Assembly: GCF_988242995.1 (NCBI RefSeq)
Contig: NZ_OZ547043.1
DNA length: 64,000 nt
Reading direction: 5' to 3' (one strand)
The position numbers and the translations under genes are program-made. The notes under the pieces are model-generated. The model did no database searches and had not been told where the DNA came from. It was given only the letters and a program-made list of their open reading frames with translations. Every line of letters starts with the position of its first letter. The stretch's first letter is position 1. This document shows positions 884 through 54,879 of this stretch, in pieces.

Positions 884-2869
884 TTATGCGCGCTTCAGAT
901 AGCGTTTATACCAACGTTCGAAGGCGACGGCGGGCATCGGTTTGGCAAACAAAAATCCTTGCCGCTCATTGATCCCGTTCTTGGTTAAAAAAGCATCTTC
1001 CTTTTTACTCTCCACTCCTTCAGCGATCACCTGAAGATTCAATGCCTGGGCCACAGCGACGATCGCCCGGACCAGTGACTGCGAGACAGGTTGTTTGTGA
1101 ATATCCCGAACAAAAACCTGGTCAAGTTTGATGGCATCGATCGGAAAGCGCGCCAGTTGCGAAAGTGAAGAGTAGCCGGTACCAAAATCGTCCAGATGCA
1201 CTTGCGCACCTAGTTGGCTAAATTGTTGAATAACAGAAAGTGCCAGTTCATCATTCTCAATCAGGCAGCTCTCCGTCAGTTCAACATCAATAGGGCAGTA
1301 TTCAAAATTGAGTTCCTGGAGAACCTGTTTCAGGGCGGTGAAAATGGTTTGATCGGCGAGCTGACGTGCAGAAATGTTTACCGCCACTCGCAGGTTAATG
1401 CCTTTATCCCGCCACTTTGCCACCTGGCGTACGACATCGAGAATCACCCAACGGCCTAAAGGCACAATTAGCCCTGACTCTTCGGCGTAGGAAATGAAGT
1501 CCAACGGTGGAATCAACCCACGTTCAGGTGACTGCCAACGTACTAGTGCTTCCAGACTGCGCACTTCGCCACGCCAGGTGATTTTCGGTTGATAGTGAAT
1601 AACCAACTGATCGTTTTCCAGTGCTTTACGCAAGTTGGTATCCAGCCAGAGATATTCAAATACCCGCTGATTCATTTCTGGAGTAAAAACGCAAAATTGT
1701 CCTCGTCCGCCTTCCTTCGCTGTGTACATTGCTGTGTCGGCGTGACGAATAATAGTTGCGCTGTCCGAACCATGTTCGGGAGAGAGCGAAATACCTACTG
1801 AACAGCTGGTATAAACTTCAATTAAACCAATACGAAAGGGGAGCCGTAAGCGAGTCAAAATTCGTGATGCCATTGCTTCCAGCGCGCTTTGTGAGGTATT
1901 GGATGCGAGTACCAAAAACTCATCGCCACCTGGACGCGCCAACACCTGGTCATGTTCGAGACAGCTTAAAATAGCCAATGACACGTCGCGTAATAGCTGG
2001 TCACCAAACAAATGCCCATAGGCGTCGTTGACCTTTTTAAAATTATCCAAATCAAGATACACAACCCCAACTTTATTGTTATCTGTATGATTAATTGCGT
2101 GATCGATTAACTCCTGCATTGCGTTACGATTCGGCAGTCCGGTGATACTGTCGGTATTTGCCAGAATACGCAGTCGCTCCTGAGCGCGGCGCTCTTCGGT
2201 AATGTCGGTGCCGGAACAGATTAAAAAAATCTCGTTTTTGCCACTGCCGCTGTGGACAAATTTATTGCGAAACAGAAACAGCCGCTGGCCTTTACGTGTT
2301 GGTATCCACAGTTCGACTTCATATGCATTGCCGCTTCGAAAAAATACACGGTTATTGCGCCTGGATGCCGCAGCTTCACGACGGCTCATAAACAGTTTAA
2401 ACACGCTTTGCCCAATGACGTCGTGTTCTTTCAACCCTGTGTAATCTTCACATAACCGATTGAAGCGTTGGATATTCCCCCGGCTGTCGAGAATCACTAT
2501 TGCGGAATGTGCTTCAGAAACTACCTGCTCAGCAAAGGAAAGCCCGTGTGATAAATCACGAGCAACTGCTGGTGTGTCATGCCATGCAGACGCGTTGCCA
2601 GCCCATTCCCGTTTATTGATTTTTCGTCCTACCAGATGCACAGAAAGATCGCTTTCATCGACGGTCAGACTCATCATCAGACTGGAAGTGATGACAGTCA
2701 TTTCCCTGATGCGAGCAGCCTGTTCGGCAGATAACTGCAACGTACGTTCAGGTTCTGTGGTTTCGGTGGTAGAAAAGCGCAAAACATCGCTGCTTTCCGT
2801 TAACCGCCAGTATGGATTGTGCGATCCGAGAAAGTTGTACAACGTTGTGGACTCCCTAACGGTTTTCAT
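884..2869 (-). CDS. pdeR: c-di-GMP phosphodiesterase PdeR (PAS-GGDEF-EAL), 661 aa
   Basis: 661-aa ORF with GGDEF-like and EAL motifs (ELTES, QGF) and E. coli PdeR/YciR length and context. Confidence 0.9.
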   Translation of the reverse strand: MKTVRESTTLYNFLGSHNPYWRLTESSDVLRFSTTETTEPERTLQLSAEQAARIREMTVITSSLMMSLTVDESDLSVHLVGRKINKREWAGNASAWHDTPAVARDLSHGLSFAEQVVSEAHSAIVILDSRGNIQRFNRLCEDYTGLKEHDVIGQSVFKLFMSRREAAASRRNNRVFFRSGNAYEVELWIPTRKGQRLFLFRNKFVHSGSGKNEIFLICSGTDITEERRAQERLRILANTDSITGLPNRNAMQELIDHAINHTDNNKVGVVYLDLDNFKKVNDAYGHLFGDQLLRDVSLAILSCLEHDQVLARPGGDEFLVLASNTSQSALEAMASRILTRLRLPFRIGLIEVYTSCSVGISLSPEHGSDSATIIRHADTAMYTAKEGGRGQFCVFTPEMNQRVFEYLWLDTNLRKALENDQLVIHYQPKITWRGEVRSLEALVRWQSPERGLIPPLDFISYAEESGLIVPLGRWVILDVVRQVAKWRDKGINLRVAVNISARQLADQTIFTALKQVLQELNFEYCPIDVELTESCLIENDELALSVIQQFSQLGAQVHLDDFGTGYSSLSQLARFPIDAIKLDQVFVRDIHKQPVSQSLVRAIVAVAQALNLQVIAEGVESKKEDAFLTKNGINERQGFLFAKPMPAVAFERWYKRYLKRA

Positions 2870-3055
2870 GATGCATATCCTCCGGTTAACAGCGGAGTCC
2901 GCGGTTAAATAAAAGGAACAACATGACTTACATGAAATTAACGGCGGCTAAACGCATTGTTTTTTTTATATATTTATTTGTAATCCAGTTTTGGAAAAAC
3001 GCCAGTTTTCAAACGAAAGTCAGTTAAAAATCTGCCGGGATATGACGAAGGTGGA

Positions 3056-3093
3056 GCGGGGAAATAAACGGCCCATTCATGAGGAATGGGCCG
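3056..3093 (-). terminator. Intrinsic terminator downstream of rnb
   Basis: Perfect stem CGGCCCATT/AATGGGCCG (3069-3077 / 3085-3093) followed on the minus strand by a U-rich run, just 3' of the rnb stop. Confidence 0.5.
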
Positions 3094-3103
3094 TGAAAGG
3101 AGA

Positions 3104-5038
3104 TTACGCGACCGGGCGCGCAATAATGCTGCGGGTTTCCATGCGGACTTCGGCAATGGTGACGTCAATAACGTCAGTCACTTTATAAGCCGTTTCACCT
3201 TTAATTTGTACAGTGCCGTTTTCCTGGCTGCAAACCAGTTCATCGCGCACAGCGTGTAAGAAAGGTGCCGGAATAAAGGCAATAGCGCCGTTATCAACCA
3301 AACGCACACGCATGCCGCCACGGCTGATATCGACAATTTCCGCCGCGAAACGGGTGTCAGTCCCGGCTTTGTCTTTCAGGAAGCGTGCGTATAACCAGTC
3401 GCCAACATCACGTTCTGCCATTCGGTTGAGACGGCGACGCTCGGCCATTTGGACAGTGATTTCATCCTGCGGACGCGTCGCAGTTTCGCCTTTGATAACC
3501 GCTTTCAGCAGACGGTGGTTGATCATGTCGCCATATTTACGGATCGGCGAAGTCCAGGTGGCGTATGCCTCCAGACCGAGGCCAAAGTGAGGACCGGGTT
3601 CAGTGCTAATTTCAGCAAATGACTGGAAGCGACGAATGCGGCTGTCGAGGAAACCAGTTGGTTGCGCATCCAGTTCACGACGCAGTTTGCAGAAACCGTC
3701 CAGCGTGAGCACTTCTTCGGCATCGACATGCAGACCGTGGGTTTTCAGCAACGCTGCCAGCGCGTCGGCATTCGCCGGATCAAAGCCCATATGCACGTTA
3801 TAGATGCCAAAACCGAGCTTATCGCGCAGTACGCGGGCCGCACAAATGTTAGCGGCAATCATCGCTTCTTCGACGATACGATTGGCAATGCGACGAGGCT
3901 CGGCGACGATATCCAGCACTTCACCTTTTTCACCGAGAATAAAGCGGTAATCCGGGCGATCTTTAAATACCAGTGCGTGGTTATGACGCCACTCGCCGCG
4001 GCGTTGGCAAATTTGCGCTAACAAACGGACTTGTTCGGCAATTGCTTCACTTTCAGGCTGCCAGTCACCGGTATTTTCCAGCCAGTCAGAGACCTGGTCA
4101 TACACCAGCTTCGCTTTGGATTCGATGGTGGCGGCAAAGAATTCGATATTATCTTCAATGGTGCCATCAGCGGAGAGCGTCATGCGGCATGCCAGTACCG
4201 GGCGGACTTCATTGGCGCGCAGTGAGCAGAGATCGTCAGAAAGCTCGCGAGGCAGCATAGGGATGTTGAAGCCAGGCAGATAGTTGGTGAATGCGCGAAT
4301 TTTCGCGGCTTTGTCCAGCTTGCTGCCTTCAGCAATCCACGCGGTTGGATCGGCAATCGCCACAATCAGCTGAAGTTTGTCATCCGGCAACGCCTTAGCG
4401 AAAAGGGCGTCATCCATATCTTCTGTGCTGGCACTGTCGATGGTGACAAAATCCAGCGCGGTCAGATCTTCACGAACCAGACCTTCATCGAGCATTTCGG
4501 TAGCGACGCCGTCTGGTGCTTCTTTTTCCAGATTATGGCGCGCAAGGGTAACCCACCACGGTACAAAGTGGTCGTCACCAAAAGTGATGTATTGTGTTAG
4601 TTCAGCATAGAAAGAACGATCGCCTTTCAGCGGATGACGGCGCATTTCGGCAACCGCCCAGTCGCCTTCTTTAAACTCGTGGTTCAGGCCACGGGCTGCG
4701 CGGCAAGGAATGGCGTCTTTTAAGAGTGGATGATCAGGAACGATGGCCAGACGGTCATGTTTGCCCTGAACTTTACCCACGAAACGAGTCAGAAACGGTT
4801 CAACCAGTTCTTCTGGCTCTGCGGATTCACGTTCTTTTTCACTGTGGATAACCGCGATAATTCGGTCGCCATGCATGACTTTTTTCATCTGCGGCGGCGG
4901 AATGAAATAACTTTTTTGCGCGTCGACTTCCAGGAAGCCAAAGCCTTTTTCTGTGGCTTTTACCACCCCTTCAGCGCGTGGCGTCTGGGAATGCAGTTGC
5001 TGTTTAAGCTGCGCTAGCAGCGGGTTGTCCTGAAACAT
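3104..5038 (-). CDS. rnb: Exoribonuclease II (RNase II), 644 aa
   Basis: 644-aa ORF starting [48 protein letters not shown]; matches RNase II length and neighbourhood. Confidence 0.92.
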
Positions 5039-5105
5039 AATTGTCTATTTTGGTGGCCATTAGAGCGGCTGACAGTTTTACGCGAATCTGTCTGACGCGG
5101 CAAGG

Positions 5106-6233
5106 TTAATATGTCTCACCCAACGCGATTTTTAAGCGATTTATCCAGCCACACAGCCCGCTCCATACCAGCAGATTAATAATCTGCGTTGATGATTTTT
5201 CGTGTTCGAGTAAAGGGCTGAACTGGGCGGCGCTAAAGCGATCGGGTGCTCGGGTCAGCCATTGTATCGCCTGAACGGTAGCGCGCTCAACAGAATGACG
5301 GTCAGCCCATTGGTTAATTTCATTTTCGCCCTTGCGCATAAGGGTGCTGATTTTTTTATATTCATTTGATGAATCCATACAGGTGGCAAAACAAGCAGGA
5401 CTGCCATTTATACGCGCGCATAACAACGCCGCAAGCTGATTATCCGGCTGTGTATTGACCCGTGTGCTGTTTAACAACTTTTCGAGAAGGGAAAGTGAAA
5501 TAGGGTGGAGAGAGAGTATTTCGGCCAGTTGGCAAAGTTCTGCAGTTGAACTTTTTGTGTGTTCTTCAGGTAGTTTTTCCACCTCATAGCTGCTTCGCCA
5601 GCGTAATGATTCATCAGCAAACAGTGACGCGTCGGCGTAGTTTTGTATCTCCAGACCGGGTAACCAGCGTACCGGATGCCCGAGATAAGCCTGAAATGTC
5701 GCAATTGACCGCGCCTGAAAGCCAATAAAACCAATGATTTGGTTAATGATTACACAGTCCCAGACAGTAAGACCGACGTCATTCAGATGCTGGCGCGATC
5801 GGTTGTCGATAATAGAAGGCGAGCTAGCCAGTTGGCGGGCATATTGCGTGATTTGTGCTAACCGATGATTACTTTCCCTGGAGGAATCAGGCCCGGGGAG
5901 CGGCGTAAGTCGCGCCGAATAGTAGTTACATAACCGCTGGACGCCGCAAACCTGAGCAACCGTCAGGGCAGTAGACAAGCGTTCATAAGCGGTGAAGGTC
6001 TGTGAACGGGTCACGGTAAGCTGGTCAGGGAATAACTCCGCTGCAAGAACGCGCGCCGGGACCAGCCATGAAAGGAAGGGGGCCAGCGTTTTTTCATCAA
6101 GGATCACGTCGAGCAGAAAGGGATCGCTAACCTTTGCGGCTTCCGGGACCAGAGGCAGAACGTCATTCTCCGTAGTACTGGATTGCGTTTCATGATACCA
6201 GTGGCTTTTGCCGGTGATGTGGCGTTGTTCCAT
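5106..6233 (-). CDS. yciW: YciW, putative oxidoreductase (carboxymuconolactone decarboxylase-like); start uncertain (ORF extends to 6311)
   Basis: 401-aa ORF; internal Met ([15 protein letters not shown]...) gives the ~375-aa form; conserved position between rnb and fabI. Confidence 0.75.
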
Positions 6234-39592: not shown

Positions 39593-40542
<950 letters not shown>

Positions 40543-40568
<26 letters not shown>

Positions 40569-41271
40569 GATGCCAGCGCAGCAAGTTTGCCATCGCAAAG
40601 AGATATTTTTCGCTGGCTTCGTCGGAGGAGATGGGGGGAAACTCTGCGGTGATGCAATGCAGGTTGAGATCCGCACACCAACTACCGAAAGAGCCAGGTG
40701 TTTCATAACCGACGCTGGTTACCAGAGGCAATTCAAACGCCTGGGCCAGCCATTCGCCTAATTCGCTGTGTCTGGGATCTTCAATACAGGCCAGCGGATC
40801 GTGGAATGAGACCACCCAGGCGGGTTGAATGCGGTGTATAAGCTGGCACAGCGCCTGGGTTTCAGGTTCAGAGCCAGGTTTGTCACCTGTCAGCAATACG
40901 ACATCACGTTCTTCAGCGGCGCTGTTCCAGCGATAAACGGTTTCACCTTCCTTCCAGTTCGCCGCCGGAAAGTTTCTGTTTAAATCCACACCATTAGCAT
41001 TGGCCCGTAACCCCAACTGGCAGCCGTCAGGATTCACACACAGCACCACATGATGGCGGCGCAAAGACGGTGTCAAAGTCCGCAGAGCACAGGAGAGCGT
41101 GACGACCGAAGAGTTTTCATCACCGTGAGTGCCAGCCAGAATCAAACCACTTTCGCGGCTGGCTGCAGGGGCCGGAAACCAGATTAACGGCGCGCCCAAT
41201 AATGAACGTCCGTAATGTTCTGTTCCGGGCGGAAATGCGCCGCGTTCGGCGCGTGGGCGAGTTACGGTCAT
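40543..41271 (-). CDS. mpaA: Murein peptide amidase A (gamma-D-Glu-Dap amidase), 242 aa
   Basis: Zinc carboxypeptidase-like; start MTVTRPRAERG; 3' end overlaps ycjG by 26 bp. Confidence 0.88.
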
Positions 41272-41516
41272 GATCGTCTCTGGTTCAGGAAGTATTACAG
41301 GCAGTGTTGTGCAAATTTTGCGGATTATCAAATCCTTTTCTTCAACGCTATGTCATCGATCTTGTATCACCTTTTTGCCGGAAGTTGTTTGCATTTTCAT
41401 TGATGGTCAGATATTAGAATTGTCGTAATGTTATATACATGGCGTATTTTATTCTTACTGGTTCTACACATGTTAATCGCATCTGATTGATCAGTTCACC
41501 TTAATAAGTTTAATAA

Positions 41517-41543
41517 ATCGTACTGCACATAGTACAGTACGAT
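41517..41543 (-). terminator. Candidate terminator of the ymjC-like gene
   Basis: 9-bp perfect stem ATCGTACTG/CAGTACGAT with 9-nt loop, followed on the minus strand by UUAUUAAAC. Confidence 0.4.
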
Positions 41544-41561
41544 GGTAGCTATATAATTGAT

Positions 41562-42200
41562 TTACATGAAGAATGGCTTGTCGCCATCAGTCCCGGGTTG
41601 ATTGATTCCTATATTCTCACCAATGTGTTTCTCAGGTTTATCGATGATATCTGTAATTAATGCTGCGACACTCTTACGTGATACGATCGTACCTTTGAAT
41701 GGTTCATTGCGTGAGGTAAGCTCATAATCAATAATATCTTCATCGGTCAGCCAGGCAGGGCGAAGAATTGTATATTCCAGTCCAGAAGCCTCAATTGCAT
41801 CCGCAGCCCTGCGGAATGGTTTTAGGGGTTCACCAATAACTGCATTATTCCATTCGCCAAATTTTCCTGGAACTTCATCATAAATACCGAGGGAAAGAAC
41901 AAAGATCAGACGTTTAACATCACAGGCTTTCATCGCAGCGATCACTGAATTTGCCTGAATATCTAAATCTTCCCCCGTAAGGTTGGCATACACAACATCC
42001 TGTCCCTGCATGGCCTGCTTCAGTGCTGCATGATTCAGTACATCCCCCATAATAATCTTGCTATTAGTGGGATAGGGTTTGTGGATTTTTGCTGGCTGAC
42101 GGGCAAATAAAGTTTGTTTAATGGTTTGTTTATCTGCCAGTTGATTAATCACATGGCGGGCTATCTGACCGCCAGCACCAAGAATCAGTACATTTTTCAT
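41562..42200 (-). CDS. ymjC: NAD(P)-binding (NmrA/atypical SDR-like) oxidoreductase, 212 aa; intact counterpart of K-12 ymjC
   Basis: Rossmann motif LILGAGGQIA near the N-terminus; full-length ORF between mpaA and ycjY. Confidence 0.65.
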   Translation of the reverse strand: MKNVLILGAGGQIARHVINQLADKQTIKQTLFARQPAKIHKPYPTNSKIIMGDVLNHAALKQAMQGQDVVYANLTGEDLDIQANSVIAAMKACDVKRLIFVLSLGIYDEVPGKFGEWNNAVIGEPLKPFRRAADAIEASGLEYTILRPAWLTDEDIIDYELTSRNEPFKGTIVSRKSVAALITDIIDKPEKHIGENIGINQPGTDGDKPFFM

Positions 42201-42270
42201 GAAACTTTTCCCAGATTATTGGCAGCAATATGCCAGGCCATATCACTATTACGGATTTGAATATGTTTCA

Positions 42271-43191
42271 TTACAGAGTTTCCTCAAAGAACGGAGCTAA
42301 TACTGAAATTGCTTCAGCCACATAGACTTTGCCGTCATAAAGATCCATATGGTTTGCGCCTTCAACAATGTGATAGCGTTTATCCTGGCTTGATGCTCGA
42401 TCGTACAGGTCGTCACTCATCCATTTGCTCCCAGCCTGGCTGCCCGCCACAATCTGTATCGGCTGAGTCAGGTACACTTCCGCCATATGGTAAGCATCAT
42501 AGGTAATAATCTGGTTAAGGCTGCGCAAAGTAGCGTAACCCGGTGCTGTTGGGTACTGCGCGCGAGGGGTGTGGTAATACTCCCAGGCCTGACGCAGTTC
42601 TTCGTTCGGCGCATCGGACTCCTTCATTGGTGCCAGTGGCATAGTGGCGTATTCTCCGCTGCTAATATCGCTGGTTCGGGCGTTTGAACCCGCGTCAACG
42701 TATGGTAGGGCATCAATAGATTTCACATTGTTTTCCCAACCATTACGGAACATCGAACCAATATTGACCGCACTAACAGTACCGATGGCCTTGATGCGGC
42801 GATCCTGAATTGCAGCATTGGCTGTATATCCTGCACCGGCACAAATTCCCATCGCACCAATTCGGCTATTGTCGACATAAGAAAGCGTTGTCAGGTAATC
42901 AATCACGGCACTGACGTCTTCAGTACGAATGTATGGGTTTTCTAACTGACGCGGCTCGCCGCCGCTTTCACCTTGATAAGATGCGTCATAAGCAATAGTG
43001 ACAAATCCCTTTTCCGCCAGTTTTTCGGCATAGGTTCCGGCCGTTTGCTCTTTAACGCCCCCACCTGGGTGAGATACCACAATTGCCGGATACTGACGGG
43101 TTTCATCAAATTTTGGAGGGAAATAGATCACTGCAGACAAAGAGATGGTTGGATTATTGCTGTTAGTGAAGCTGACTTTATTATTCATCAT
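42271..43191 (-). CDS. ycjY: YcjY, alpha/beta hydrolase (dienelactone hydrolase/S9-like), ~306 aa
   Basis: Hydrolase fold with GICAGAG nucleophile elbow; start approximate (ORF extends to 43203). Confidence 0.8.
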   Translation of the reverse strand: MMNNKVSFTNSNNPTISLSAVIYFPPKFDETRQYPAIVVSHPGGGVKEQTAGTYAEKLAEKGFVTIAYDASYQGESGGEPRQLENPYIRTEDVSAVIDYLTTLSYVDNSRIGAMGICAGAGYTANAAIQDRRIKAIGTVSAVNIGSMFRNGWENNVKSIDALPYVDAGSNARTSDISSGEYATMPLAPMKESDAPNEELRQAWEYYHTPRAQYPTAPGYATLRSLNQIITYDAYHMAEVYLTQPIQIVAGSQAGSKWMSDDLYDRASSQDKRYHIVEGANHMDLYDGKVYVAEAISVLAPFFEETL

Positions 43192-43328
43192 TCCGTTCCT
43201 CATGGAGTTGTCGGTTCGTTTTAACGGTTGGTGATATCACTATAGATATTGATCATTAAGTTGATTAGACCCAAAATCATGATTAGACCTATCATTTAAA
43301 TGATTAATAGATTGTATGGAGATACTGA

Positions 43329-44228
43329 ATGAAGCGTGAAGAAATCGCTGATCTGATGGCGTTTGTCGTCGTTGCAGAGGAGCGTAGCTTCACTCGCGCA
43401 GCAGCCCGCCTGAGCATGGCGCAGTCAGCTTTAAGCCAGATAGTGCGCCGTATAGAAGAACGATTGGGATTGCGGCTTCTGACGCGAACCACGCGCAGCG
43501 TTGTACCCACTGAAGCGGGCGAGCATCTTTTGTCTGTTCTTGGCCCTATGTTGCATGACATAGATTCTGCCCTGACATCCCTGAGCGATCTGCAGAACCG
43601 CCCATCCGGGACAATACGTATTACTACTGTAGAACATGCAGCAAAAACGATATTGTTACCAGCTATGCGCACATTCCTGAAATCGCATCCTGAAATTGAT
43701 ATCCAGCTTACCATTGATTATGGTTTGACCGATGTCGTTTCTGAACGTTTTGATGCAGGCGTCCGTCTGGGTGGGGAGATGGATAAAGATATGATCGCCA
43801 TTCGAATCGGGCCAGATATACCAATGGCTATTGTTGGCTCACCGGATTATTTTTCTCGTCGAAGTGCTCCAACGTCAGTGTCACAATTAATAGATCATCA
43901 GGCAATTAATTTGTATCTTCCCACATCGGGTACAGCAAATCGCTGGAGATTAATACGCGGTGGACGTGAAGTTCGTGTTCGCATGGAAGGTCAGCTTTTA
44001 CTGAATACGATAGACCTGATCATTGATGCTGCAATTGATGGGCATGGATTGGCGTATCTACCTTATGATCAGGTTGAGCGGGCTATTAAAGAAAAAAAAC
44101 TGATACGTGTTTTGGATAAATTCACACCAGATTTACCCGGTTATCACCTGTACTATCCACACCGTCGACATGCTGGCTCGGCATTCTCATTATTTATAGA
44201 TAGGCTGAAGTATAAAGGTGCTGTTTAG
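43329..44228 (+). CDS. pgrR: LysR-type regulator PgrR (YcjZ), 299 aa
   Basis: LysR HTH (FTRAAARLSMAQSALSQIVRRIEERLGLRLLTR); divergent from ycjY. Confidence 0.88.
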   Translation: MKREEIADLMAFVVVAEERSFTRAAARLSMAQSALSQIVRRIEERLGLRLLTRTTRSVVPTEAGEHLLSVLGPMLHDIDSALTSLSDLQNRPSGTIRITTVEHAAKTILLPAMRTFLKSHPEIDIQLTIDYGLTDVVSERFDAGVRLGGEMDKDMIAIRIGPDIPMAIVGSPDYFSRRSAPTSVSQLIDHQAINLYLPTSGTANRWRLIRGGREVRVRMEGQLLLNTIDLIIDAAIDGHGLAYLPYDQVERAIKEKKLIRVLDKFTPDLPGYHLYYPHRRHAGSAFSLFIDRLKYKGAV

Positions 44229-44564
44229 CACTACTTGCTGATACATTAATTTAATTCTTCTCTTAACGTATTCTCAGTTCCTTTCAACGTTTTGGTCATT
44301 TTTTATTCTTCGTACAATGGCGACAGATGCTGATTATGATACCGAAAACGGGTTTGAACGTGCGAAGCCCGAACGTAGTGTTCGGAGTTCTATGTGCTTT
44401 ACCGCATTTTGGAGACTATTATTTACACTAAATCTGATTTGATATATTGATACTTAAAACATTTGATGCTTCCTTTGTCACTTTTTTGATGGAAGTTGTT
44501 TGCATTTCTTTAAGGCGAAACAAATAATTACGCATCAATTTTAATGTCGGTTAGAGGGAAACTT

Positions 44565-46178
44565 ATGAAGCACTCTGTTTCAGTCACGTGTTGTGCGCTG
44601 TTGGTCAGCAGCATTTCTCTTTCGTATGCTGCTGAAGTTCCGAGCGGCACAGTACTGGCAGAGAAGCAGGAGCTGGTGCGCCACATTAAAGATGAGCCAG
44701 CGTCGCTGGATCCCGCTAAAGCCGTGGGCCTGCCGGAGATTCAGGTCATTCGCGATCTGTTTGAAGGACTGGTGAATCAGAACGAGAAAGGGGAGATTGT
44801 CCCCGGCGTTGCGACTCAGTGGAAAAGTAATGACAACCGTATCTGGACTTTTACCCTGCGCGATAACGCAAAATGGGCGGATGGCACACCGGTAACGACG
44901 CAAGATTTTGTCTACAGCTGGCAACGTCTGGTGGACCCAAAAACATTGTCGCCATTTGCATGGTTTGCCGCGCTGGCGGGAATCAACAACGCACAGGCGA
45001 TTATTGATGGTAAAGCCACGCCTGACCAGCTTGGCGTCACCGCAGTTGATGCCCATACTTTGAAAATCCAGCTTGATAAACCGTTGCCGTGGTTTGTGAA
45101 TTTAACCGCTAACTTTGCCTTCTTCCCGGTGCAAAAAGCCAACGTAGAAAGCAGTAAAGAGTGGACGAAACCCGGAAATCTGATCGGCAATGGCGCTTAT
45201 GTTCTTAAAGAGCGCGTAGTCAATGAAAAACTGGTCGTGGTACCGAATACCCATTATTGGGATAACGCCAAAACGGTGCTGCAAAAAGTGACCTTCCTGC
45301 CAATTAATCAGGAATCCGCAGCCACTAAGCGTTACCTCGCGGGGGATATTGATATCACCGAATCCTTCCCGAAAAATATGTATCAGAAGCTGTTGAAGGA
45401 TATTCCGGGGCAGGTTTATACGCCGCCGCAGCTCGGGACCTATTATTATGCGTTTAACACGCAAAAAGGGCCGACGGCCGATCAGCGTGTTCGCCTGGCA
45501 TTAAGTATGACGATAGATCGCCGCCTGATGACCGAAAAAGTGTTGGGGACGGGGGAAAAGCCAGCGTGGCATTTTACACCAGATGTTACTGCCGGTTTTA
45601 CGCCGGAGCCTTCGCCGTTTGAACAAATGAGTCAGGAAGAACTGAATGCGCAGGCAAAAACTTTGTTGAGCGCAGCTGGTTATGGTCCGCAAAAACCGCT
45701 GAAGCTGACGCTTTTGTATAACACTTCAGAAAACCATCAAAAAATTGCGATTGCTGTAGCATCGATGTGGAAAAAGAACCTTGGCGTAGATGTTAAATTG
45801 CAGAATCAGGAATGGAAAACCTATATCGATAGCCGTAACACCGGCAATTTTGATGTTATCCGCGCCTCATGGGTAGGGGATTATAATGAACCCTCCACTT
45901 TCCTTACGTTGTTAACGTCAACGCATTCAGGGAATATTTCACGCTTTAACAATCCGGCATACGACAAAGTACTGGCCCAGGCATCAACGGAAAATACCGT
46001 TAAAGCGCGTAATGCCGATTACAATGCGGCAGAAAAAATCCTCATGGAGCAAGCACCGATTGCACCAATTTATCAATATACCAATGGACGATTAATCAAG
46101 CCGTGGCTGAAAGGTTATCCCATTAATAACCCGGAAGATGTGGCGTACAGTCGGACTATGTATATTGTGAAGCATTGA
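44565..46178 (+). CDS. mppA: Periplasmic murein tripeptide-binding protein MppA, 537 aa
   Basis: OppA-like solute-binding protein with signal peptide; start MKHSVSVTCCALLVSSISLSYA. Confidence 0.9.
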   Translation: MKHSVSVTCCALLVSSISLSYAAEVPSGTVLAEKQELVRHIKDEPASLDPAKAVGLPEIQVIRDLFEGLVNQNEKGEIVPGVATQWKSNDNRIWTFTLRDNAKWADGTPVTTQDFVYSWQRLVDPKTLSPFAWFAALAGINNAQAIIDGKATPDQLGVTAVDAHTLKIQLDKPLPWFVNLTANFAFFPVQKANVESSKEWTKPGNLIGNGAYVLKERVVNEKLVVVPNTHYWDNAKTVLQKVTFLPINQESAATKRYLAGDIDITESFPKNMYQKLLKDIPGQVYTPPQLGTYYYAFNTQKGPTADQRVRLALSMTIDRRLMTEKVLGTGEKPAWHFTPDVTAGFTPEPSPFEQMSQEELNAQAKTLLSAAGYGPQKPLKLTLLYNTSENHQKIAIAVASMWKKNLGVDVKLQNQEWKTYIDSRNTGNFDVIRASWVGDYNEPSTFLTLLTSTHSGNISRFNNPAYDKVLAQASTENTVKARNADYNAAEKILMEQAPIAPIYQYTNGRLIKPWLKGYPINNPEDVAYSRTMYIVKH

Positions 46179-54704: not shown

Positions 54705-54879
54705 AACCTTTCCCGTCATCAGTAAAAAGTGTGACCCGGTTCACGTAGCGATAGTTTTTACTTATCACTAACTGATTTTTCACAGTTTTAACCGTTCATA
54801 AATTACCCTGACACAATCATCTGCATTAAAGTAGATGCCAGTTTCTTTGGTCTGATAAATAACGGTTATCGGTGGCGTC

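Follow-up and report, generated by a model that had tools for sequence, protein, structure and literature searches.

A direct repeat around the pgrR islet between mpaA and mppA of Escherichia coli: a probable insertion scar rather than a regulon operator

The closest described arrangements are the attL and attR sites of genomic islands and prophages, where imperfect direct repeats surround an acquired segment, the unoccupied site has a single copy, the duplicated piece restores a function (e.g., the 3' end of a tRNA gene), and the segment can be lost again via the repeats. The locus analyzed here lies in a 64-kb window (the whole stretch of DNA that was examined) and resembles these sites in each respect, the restored piece being the -35 half of a promoter. 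It differs in that the segment and the sequence next to it encode no integrase or excisionase, the target is a promoter and not a tRNA or tmRNA gene, and the crossover positions vary among genomes without the segment. Target-site duplication by transposons likewise leaves target DNA directly repeated at both insertion junctions, but usually 2-14 bp of it; with a 37-nt repeat and with transposase and terminal inverted repeats both absent, we rejected this class. The locus matches short-homology islet deletion, with nothing unusual, in that a hybrid of its two repeats is found in genomes that lack the islet. The locus is also that of the PgrR (YcjZ) regulon of E. coli K-12, where ycjY-ymjDC-mpaA is subject to repression by PgrR acting at the ycjY/pgrR spacer (Shimada et al. 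2013, summarized in PMC5934670 and PMC5493296), whereas the repeat lies away from the PgrR site so reported and is older than pgrR at the locus.

The direct repeat comprises 37 nt on the plus strand, at 41360-41396 (left copy) and 44471-44507 (right copy), with 31 of the 37 positions identical. The initial annotation had described 32-mers with 28 identities and an exact 17-mer; these, and their coordinates, were correct, and the repeat extends them by 5 nt leftward. The exact core, GGAAGTTGTTTGCATTT, occupies 41380-41396 and 44491-44507 (both plus strand). Position 41371 is a C, a rare variant of the source strain, with T found in K-12, O157 and the empty sites; the T raises the match to 32/37. 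The left copy sits 89-125 nt upstream of the mpaA ATG (mpaA, 40543-41271, minus strand), on the strand opposite to mpaA, and the right copy runs on into the mppA-proximal spacer (mppA, 44565-46178, plus strand); the distances given earlier to the two start codons, at 41271 and 44565, were roughly right. Within 40500-45000 no repeat was longer than this pair. A longer duplicated fragment, named at the outset as what would undo a regulatory reading, was not found either: the similarity ends at 37 nt, and beyond it the flanks cannot be aligned, with no further homology between the two spacers. The unduplicated part of the ancestral mpaA-proximal spacer, 41272-41359, contains the conserved blocks GGCAGTGTTGTGCAAA (41300-41315) and ATCAAAT (41327-41333).

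The two directly oriented copies coincide precisely with the ends of a variable segment. This islet of 3,074 bp (41397-44470) is present in some E. coli genomes and absent from others, which have empty sites. We examined 75 loci with a spacer below 240 bp; they came from five Escherichia lineages and from more than 15 genera. In some 70 Enterobacteriaceae species besides E. coli (E. albertii and E. whittamii included), mpaA adjoins mppA across a spacer of ~182 bp with one copy of the element. Every one of the 69 short-spacer loci from outside Escherichia had this one-copy arrangement, as did E. albertii, E. whittamii and a further three lineages of Escherichia. A one-copy site reads as the left flank of the window joined to the repeat and then to the right flank (125 + 57 = 182 bp), and the window is collinear with such sites from the mpaA ATG through 41396. 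Judged from this comparison, the single copy at the unoccupied site is the ancestral state. Because the relatives have adjacent mpaA and mppA with a single copy, the islet appears to have been inserted in the E. coli lineage with duplication of its target. Among the relatives compared at this locus, the islet was shared only by Escherichia sp. E1V33, in which the right and left copies differ at only 3 of 37 positions, a pair that would fit a true duplication followed by drift.

The islet carries an SDR / NAD(P)H-binding oxidoreductase gene (41562-42200, minus strand), the intact counterpart of the K-12 ymjC/ymjD pseudogene; ycjY, encoding an alpha/beta hydrolase (42271-43203, minus strand); and pgrR (ycjZ), encoding a LysR-type regulator (43329-44228, plus strand). 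Its G+C content ranges from 0.37 to 0.52, compared with 0.50-0.56 in the flanks. A four-gene form of the cassette is retained in O157 and is carried by conjugative Klebsiella plasmids with 79% nucleotide identity; the cassette was also found on a Rhizobium plasmid, and YcjY shares 82-86% identity with proteins of Rhizobium, Agrobacterium and Sphingobium. Since the cassette occurs on plasmids and YcjY has its relatives in Alphaproteobacteria, the islet is, on these homologies, mobile cargo of foreign origin. The 94-bp left and 242-bp right ends of the islet had no plasmid matches. Of two donor candidates that were rejected, the closest non-E. coli YcjY (88% identity) lies in an unrelated context devoid of the islet end segments, and the second proved to be an E. 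coli contig. A search of 41200-44650 for known RNA families returned none, with one sub-threshold match within pgrR.

We therefore regard the repeats as the duplicated ends left by insertion of three genes of foreign origin (pgrR, ycjY and the oxidoreductase gene) into the ancestral mpaA-mppA control region, with a probability of roughly 85%. In the ancestor, mpaA and mppA would have been divergent neighbors separated by ~182 bp, with the one copy constituting the -35 hexamer of mppA (TTGCAT) and ~30 nt upstream of it. A horizontally acquired cassette, comprising pgrR, one or two alpha/beta hydrolase genes (ycjY) and the SDR oxidoreductase gene, would then have entered directly after ...GCATTT in the E. 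coli lineage, with ~37 bp of target sequence duplicated. The right copy, with the unchanged -10 region, would maintain mppA transcription, and the left copy would remain on the mpaA side in its ancestral position. The left copy lacks a -10 downstream and points toward the 3' end of the SDR gene, and so is most likely a non-functional relic. The duplication might have originated from att-like integration of a circular molecule bearing a copy of the target, or from a template switch during replication, with re-entry 37 bp behind. Against insertion stand the gene content of the islet (oxidoreductase, hydrolase and regulator, with no integrase, recombinase or transposase), the lack of terminal inverted repeats when the sequence from 41397 was compared with that ending at 44470, and a duplication of 37 bp, which far exceeds those of ordinary transposons.

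Islet-free E. coli genomes offer a second view of the empty site. Among complete E. coli genomes, 5,418 gave a match and 174 of these lack the islet, and pgrR is wholly missing from ~3% of complete genomes; in E. coli CLSC36 and the 173 others the mpaA-mppA gap is 182 bp with one copy of the element. Single copies of both a GCC type and a GAT type occur. A hybrid, in which the left-specific 5' end is joined to the right-specific GAT (TCTTGTATCAC...TTTGAT-core), was exact in 10 complete genomes, and 4 more were one base off (one of the four was checked), so that at least 10 and probably 14 of the 174 carry it; it was also present on three metagenome contigs. At least two flanking haplotypes carry the hybrid, and in one of them the encoded MpaA and MppA match the K-12 proteins exactly. 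As these islet-free genomes carry a left/right hybrid, the islet was presumably lost via recombination between the repeats, both of which would now act as short homology for such loss; the homology available for exchange is only 17-26 nt. The coexistence of GCC-type and GAT-type single copies suggests crossovers at at least two positions, in the core or upstream of it. The hybrids could be explained equally well by allelic replacement from an islet-free donor, and the common GCC-type empty site could be either an ancestral islet-naive allele or a secondary loss.

The function of the right copy is suggested by its position. A consensus scan called TTTGCA-18-AATAAT there, equivalent to TTGCAT-17-AATAAT, and called no promoter at the left copy. 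The predicted sigma-70 promoter of mppA (44500-44528, plus strand) consists of TTGCAT at 44500-44505, inside the core, a 17-nt spacer and AATAAT at 44523-44528, with the mppA ATG 37 nt past the -10. The overlap with a -35 had been recognized earlier as TTGCAT-N17-ATAATT, with the spacing off by one, since ATAATT requires N18 and N17 gives AATAAT. The 17-nt spacing falls in the 16-18 nt range of sigma-70 promoters, and both hexamers are kept, with their spacing, in the orthologous spacers: TTTGCATTT and GAAACAAATAATTAC are ~90-99% conserved at a fixed spacing in 69 non-Escherichia species. Conservation and consensus together indicate that the right copy provides the -35 hexamer and the upstream part of the mppA promoter, and transcription would be expected to start near 44535; no transcription-start data for mppA turned up in the literature searched. 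A promoter module, as first suggested, is thus upheld for the right copy, which overlaps the -35 and upstream region of a promoter conserved across Enterobacteriaceae. In E. coli the 17-nt core of the right copy is invariant, and the 5' 20 nt of that copy differ among lineages.

Other binding sites in the element were considered and set aside. Sigma-54 promoters have GG and GC elements exactly 10 nt apart (TGGCAC-N5-TTGC); the core resembles such a -24/-12 element, but the gap in GGAAGTTGTTTGC is 9 nt. In the upstream half, likeness to a Pho box or a CRP site was limited to weak half-sites that are not conserved across genera. The CRP site given for 'ycjZ/mppA' (ETEC ChIP, PMC4287617) is a 16-mer located at 54730-54745 of the window, 10 kb off.

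The best surviving alternative, which we nevertheless consider unlikely, is the one proposed originally: a shared operator, in which both copies bind one regulator (PgrR or another) that coordinates mpaA and mppA; on this view selection would have kept the duplication, each gene needing the site. The ancestral single copy does stand between two divergent genes of one pathway, and it could in principle have served both, each then keeping one copy; the left copy has stayed at its ancestral distance from mpaA. Moreover, the ATCA and GAAG blocks are conserved beyond the need of a -35 hexamer. The ATCA box, 99% conserved in other genera, is retained in the left copy and altered to GTCA in the right, a change that would not be expected if the box mattered for mppA alone. 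On the other side, the left copy has accumulated lineage-specific SNPs, namely the C at 41371 in the source strain and, in O157, a TTGCAT to TTGTAT change that breaks the hexamer, and a single copy suffices in islet-free genomes. The single copy is present in species without pgrR at this locus, meaning that the element predates pgrR here; PgrR arrived with the insertion, and the element therefore cannot have evolved as a PgrR operator. In addition, the published genomic SELEX targets of PgrR (PMC5934670) include the ycjY/ycjZ spacer and neither the mppA nor the mpaA spacer. Hence, membership of a PgrR regulon is unsupported for the element.

Nor did a regulon-wide motif emerge among close copies. 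The 17-mer occurred at two sites in the 64-kb window, with no third when up to 3 mismatches were allowed, and at a median of two places per genome. In metagenomes, exact 17-mers in E. coli-like contexts were all left junctions, right junctions or empty sites, so no copy was recovered beyond the two junctions. Most metagenome matches to the exact 17-mer were chance occurrences in unrelated organisms. Phylogenetic footprinting, which the initial annotation had proposed as a check, bears out the promoter part across Enterobacteriaceae and goes against a two-copy regulon, the relatives being single-copy. Two copies are consequently a junction duplication and not the signature of a regulon, given the single-copy, islet-free state of the outgroups and of the 174 E. 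coli genomes; the repeat pair is an ordinary insertion scar.

Insertion also accounts for an oddity of the E. coli map, in which two murein-peptide salvage genes that adjoin each other everywhere else are split by an unrelated foreign cassette, each with a copy of the old control sequence. PgrR would be the regulator of an imported hydrolase/oxidoreductase cassette, controlling mpaA only because that cassette landed upstream of it, and the 'PgrR regulon of peptidoglycan recycling' can be seen anew. Junction duplications of this kind can be misread as operators during annotation.

Somewhat less probable than a shared operator is a site-centered explanation, in which recombination would favor the 37-bp stretch of the mppA promoter, with foreign DNA moving in and out there time after time, through a chromosomal recombinase or structure-dependent breakage. 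This reading draws on the pgrR islet with its duplication, on the very common K-12-type 669-bp deletion with its end beside the repeat edge, and on Salmonella arizonae and diarizonae, in which a cdtABC islet interrupts the ancestral spacer inside the same element. We find it very unlikely that the repeats act as attL and attR for a small integrative element still able to excise and integrate through a site-specific recombinase whose gene lies elsewhere in the genome. Direct repeats that are imperfect, together with a single copy at the empty site, are a typical att architecture, the K-12-type 669-bp deletion stops within 1 nt of the repeat edge, and the two Salmonella have a different islet in the same spacer. 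Nevertheless, the islet itself has no recombinase gene, the Salmonella islet lacks a duplication and has the mppA promoter replaced, and instead of the fixed position in the core that marks an att site, the hybrid repeats crossed over at two places, in the core or upstream, which fits general homology-driven exchange.

Ungapped local alignment of the two spacers reached a best score of 22.5, compared with 9.3 ± 1.2 (maximum 15) for 300 dinucleotide shuffles, none of which reached the observed value (z ≈ 11). Despite the AT-rich composition of both spacers, the idea that two AT-rich promoter regions came to resemble each other by chance or convergence is refuted by these scores and by the empty-site junction, which lies exactly inside the repeat.

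The window is E. coli DNA (best match strain NRZ14408, 99.5%) with the gene order tpx-ycjG-mpaA-(SDR oxidoreductase-ycjY-pgrR)-mppA-ynaI. The initial annotation described two 32-mers (41365-41396 and 44476-44507) upstream of mpaA (40543-41271, minus strand) and mppA (44565-46178, plus strand), and these were borne out on the window sequence with 28 of 32 positions identical. The similarity extends five bases leftward, giving a 37-nt direct repeat (41360-41396 and 44471-44507, 31/37 identical) that contains an exact 17-mer, GGAAGTTGTTTGCATTT. Outside the 37 nt, comparison of the mpaA-side and mppA-side spacers revealed no relatedness, and no third copy of the 17-mer was found within the 64-kb window at up to three mismatches. 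Ungapped comparison of the two spacers gave a best score of 22.5; 300 dinucleotide-preserving shuffles gave 9.3 ± 1.2 and never exceeded 15. The repeat is real.

We searched the 40900-45000 region against 5,426 complete E. coli genomes, most of which contain all of it, while a few match at both ends only. In strain CLSC36, the divergent mpaA and mppA are directly adjacent, with 182 bp between them. On alignment, the spacer begins like the window at the mpaA start, stays with it to the end of the left copy, and then passes directly into the stretch that follows the right copy; it has one copy of the element, and 3,074 bp (41397-44470) are missing. The fit is exact: 41396 is 125 nt from the mpaA ATG, and 44508 begins a 57-nt stretch that runs to the mppA ATG, for a sum of 182. 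A search with this empty-site junction found the one-copy arrangement in 174 of 5,418 genomes. The two copies are therefore direct repeats that end a segment variably present among E. coli, and pgrR is wholly missing from ~ 3% of complete E. coli genomes. One islet-free strain, MFDS1019527, has a tyrosine-integrase prophage 66 bp into mppA (L002, the locus of this strain, 4555-6000), in agreement with mppA being the reported attachment site of mEpimmI phages (PMC11893012).

Relatives of MpaA were scanned in bacteria and archaea, one genome per species; 80 loci were kept with their flanks, and MppA, PgrR, YcjY and the SDR protein were mapped onto them. The mpaA-mppA distance was 138-316 bp in 75 loci, mostly 182-190 bp. 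These short spacers occur in Citrobacter, Enterobacter, Leclercia, Lelliottia, Kluyvera, Kosakonia, Pluralibacter, Trabulsiella, Yokenella and Pseudocitrobacter, as well as in E. albertii, E. whittamii and three more Escherichia lineages. Among the 80 loci, the islet genes were shared only by Escherichia sp. E1V33. The one-copy spacers of the outgroups indicate that this state is ancestral and that the segment entered on the lineage toward E. coli. The right copy of E1V33 (CCCTGTGTCACTTTTTTGCC followed by GGAAGTTATTTGCATTT) and the left copy disagree at only 3 of 37 positions, which fits a true target duplication that later drifted. Lineages differ rather widely across the entire pgrR-mppA spacer, so that the additional differences between the copies in the window require no special explanation.

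The short spacers from the 75 loci were aligned, and conservation was scored on the 69 non-Escherichia loci among them. The 17-nt core had a mean identity of 81% to E. coli, compared to 54-58% for the remaining spacer. Within the core, TTTGCATTT is ~ 90-99% conserved, as is GAAACAAATAATTAC, placed at a fixed spacing of eight bases downstream; an ATCA box and a GAAG box upstream are likewise conserved. The conserved blocks read as a predicted sigma-70 promoter, TTGCAT-N17-AATAAT, 37 nt ahead of the mppA ATG, and a consensus scan selected a predicted promoter at 44499-44528. The element would thus correspond to the -35 hexamer and ~ 30 nt upstream of it in the predicted mppA promoter. The insertion point lies directly past the -35 region, meaning that insertion without duplication would have split the two hexamers, and it is the right copy that appears to restore the predicted promoter. 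At the left copy, the consensus scan called no promoter, and the adjoining islet DNA offers no acceptable -10. Moreover, the left copy faces the 3' end of the SDR gene, which is convergent with it, and has lineage-specific changes (C at 41371 in the window, TTGCAT to TTGTAT in O157), and we therefore regard it as probably a relic. The promoter module proposed in the initial annotation is supported for the right copy. The C at 41371 (CACCTTTTT) is nearly private to the window strain; the 101-nt left junction was matched at ≥ 99% by only two complete genomes.

The same spacer was struck independently in Salmonella. S. enterica subsp. arizonae and diarizonae have a 3.1-3.4 kb islet there (L023 3848-7000 and L025 3562-7000, the respective loci) that encodes cdtA, cdtB and cdtC (Pfam CDtoxinA, Exo_endo_phos, CDtoxinA). 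The diarizonae locus retains the ancestral spacer up to ...ATATCAACTTTCTGCCGGA, a point within the element; this islet shows no duplicated target, and both the -35 and the GAAACAAATAAT block of the ancestral mppA promoter are lost.

An exact scan of metagenome contigs with the 17-mer gave chance matches for the most part. Further copies of the element did not emerge: every context resembling E. coli proved to be one of the two islet junctions (left or right) or an empty site. Three metagenome empty sites were hybrid, with TCTTGTATCAC (left type) followed by TTTTTTGAT and the core. The GAT in TTTTTTGAT is specific to the E. coli right copy and was found in no outgroup and no left copy, so that the hybrid genomes must descend from a left-type/right-type exchange upstream of the core, and hence that the islet was lost through recombination via the repeats, either in cis or during allelic replacement. 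The hybrid is exact in ten complete genomes and one base off in four others. One of the four, CP131_Sichuan, has the same MpaA and MppA protein accessions as K-12 BW25113 and a left-flank SNP unlike the other hybrids; the exchange thus occurred on two or more backgrounds. As for the ~ 160 "GCC" empty sites, they may stem from crossovers inside the core or represent alleles in which the islet was never present.

We conclude that the repeat is a duplication at the junctions of a small islet gained by horizontal transfer, and that it incidentally holds half a promoter. The duplication is real but ordinary, a fresh instance of a well-known feature type. The same picture would be expected from a replicative template switch with re-entry into the chromosome 37 bp behind the point of exit. 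The pattern also resembles the attL/attR of integrative elements, which bring a target copy that restores the interrupted function; in contrast to these, the islet has no recombinase (no integrase or transposase genes were found in it, nor do its ends form inverted repeats), and islet-loss genomes show no fixed crossover point. Transposon target duplications are far shorter than 37 bp.

The islet genes encode an NAD(P)H-binding SDR-type oxidoreductase, an alpha/beta hydrolase and a LysR regulator. The cassette, with a second hydrolase gene, is present on conjugative plasmids of Klebsiella aerogenes, K. variicola and K. pneumoniae (79% nucleotide identity), and also on a Rhizobium tropici plasmid; YcjY is 82-86% identical to proteins named from Rhizobium, Agrobacterium, Sphingobium and Burkholderia. 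By these relationships, the inserted segment is mobile cargo. The 82-86% amino-acid identity of YcjY between E. coli and Alphaproteobacteria is unusually high.

There are at least three structural forms of the islet in E. coli (window 42271-43203; L085, the O157:H7 record, 1622-3473; L084 5072-8620). O157:H7 has four genes with two hydrolases, as on the Klebsiella plasmids. The window has three (ycjY at 42271-43203), the second hydrolase having been lost in its lineage, and the K-12 form has a truncated SDR gene. A 669-bp stretch covering the SDR 3' part is absent from K-12 and 2,293 complete E. coli genomes, and also from E1V33. The deletion spans 41396/41397 to 42065/42066 (L083 997-998; L005), taking in the 3' part of the SDR gene and the spacer that follows it downstream. 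Its left end lies ≤ 1 nt from the left-repeat edge (...GCATTT/TATTAG...), with only 1 nt of microhomology, a coincidence of ~ 1 in 100 by chance. Just past the SDR stop (minus strand), a palindrome, CGTACTG...CAGTACG (41519-41541), precedes a T-rich stretch and may act as a weak terminator separating mpaA from the SDR gene; its removal by the K-12-type deletion might explain the co-transcription of mpaA with ycjY in K-12. At ~ 44327-44401 (L085 4608-4682), NCBI annotates a 75-bp queH (epoxyqueuosine reductase) pseudogene fragment in the O157:H7 pgrR-mppA spacer, suggesting that the 242 bp from the pgrR stop to the right repeat are debris of the donor context.

Because PgrR arrived with the islet, the element cannot have arisen as a PgrR operator, and this part of the initial annotation was not borne out. 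The published PgrR regulon comprises ycjG, ycjXF-tyrR and ycjY-ymjDC-mpaA, and the list omits both the mppA spacer and the ymjC-mpaA spacer (PMC5934670). Negative autoregulation of PgrR, detected by PPTP-seq, was assigned to the site within the promoter region of pgrR (PMC10505187). PgrR became linked to mpaA through the accident of the cassette's landing site. A less likely reading is that some other factor bound the single ancestral copy and served both divergent genes, each of which would now keep a site; this would account for the left copy keeping the invariant ATCA box, compared to GTCA in the right copy. The literature searched defines no mppA regulator or transcription start. The CRP site CGTGAACCGGGTCACA, listed under "ycjZ/mppA" in an ETEC ChIP study (PMC4287617), has an exact match at 54730-54745, 10 kb from mppA in the window. 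The most conserved block beside mpaA, GGCAGTGTTGTGCAAAT (41300-41316), resembles the core GGAAGTTGTTTGCATTT at 41380-41396 in 11 of 17 positions, in the same orientation and 80 bp apart. Both read GG-N9-GC, one base below sigma-54 spacing, and could be two sites for one factor, or alike by chance.
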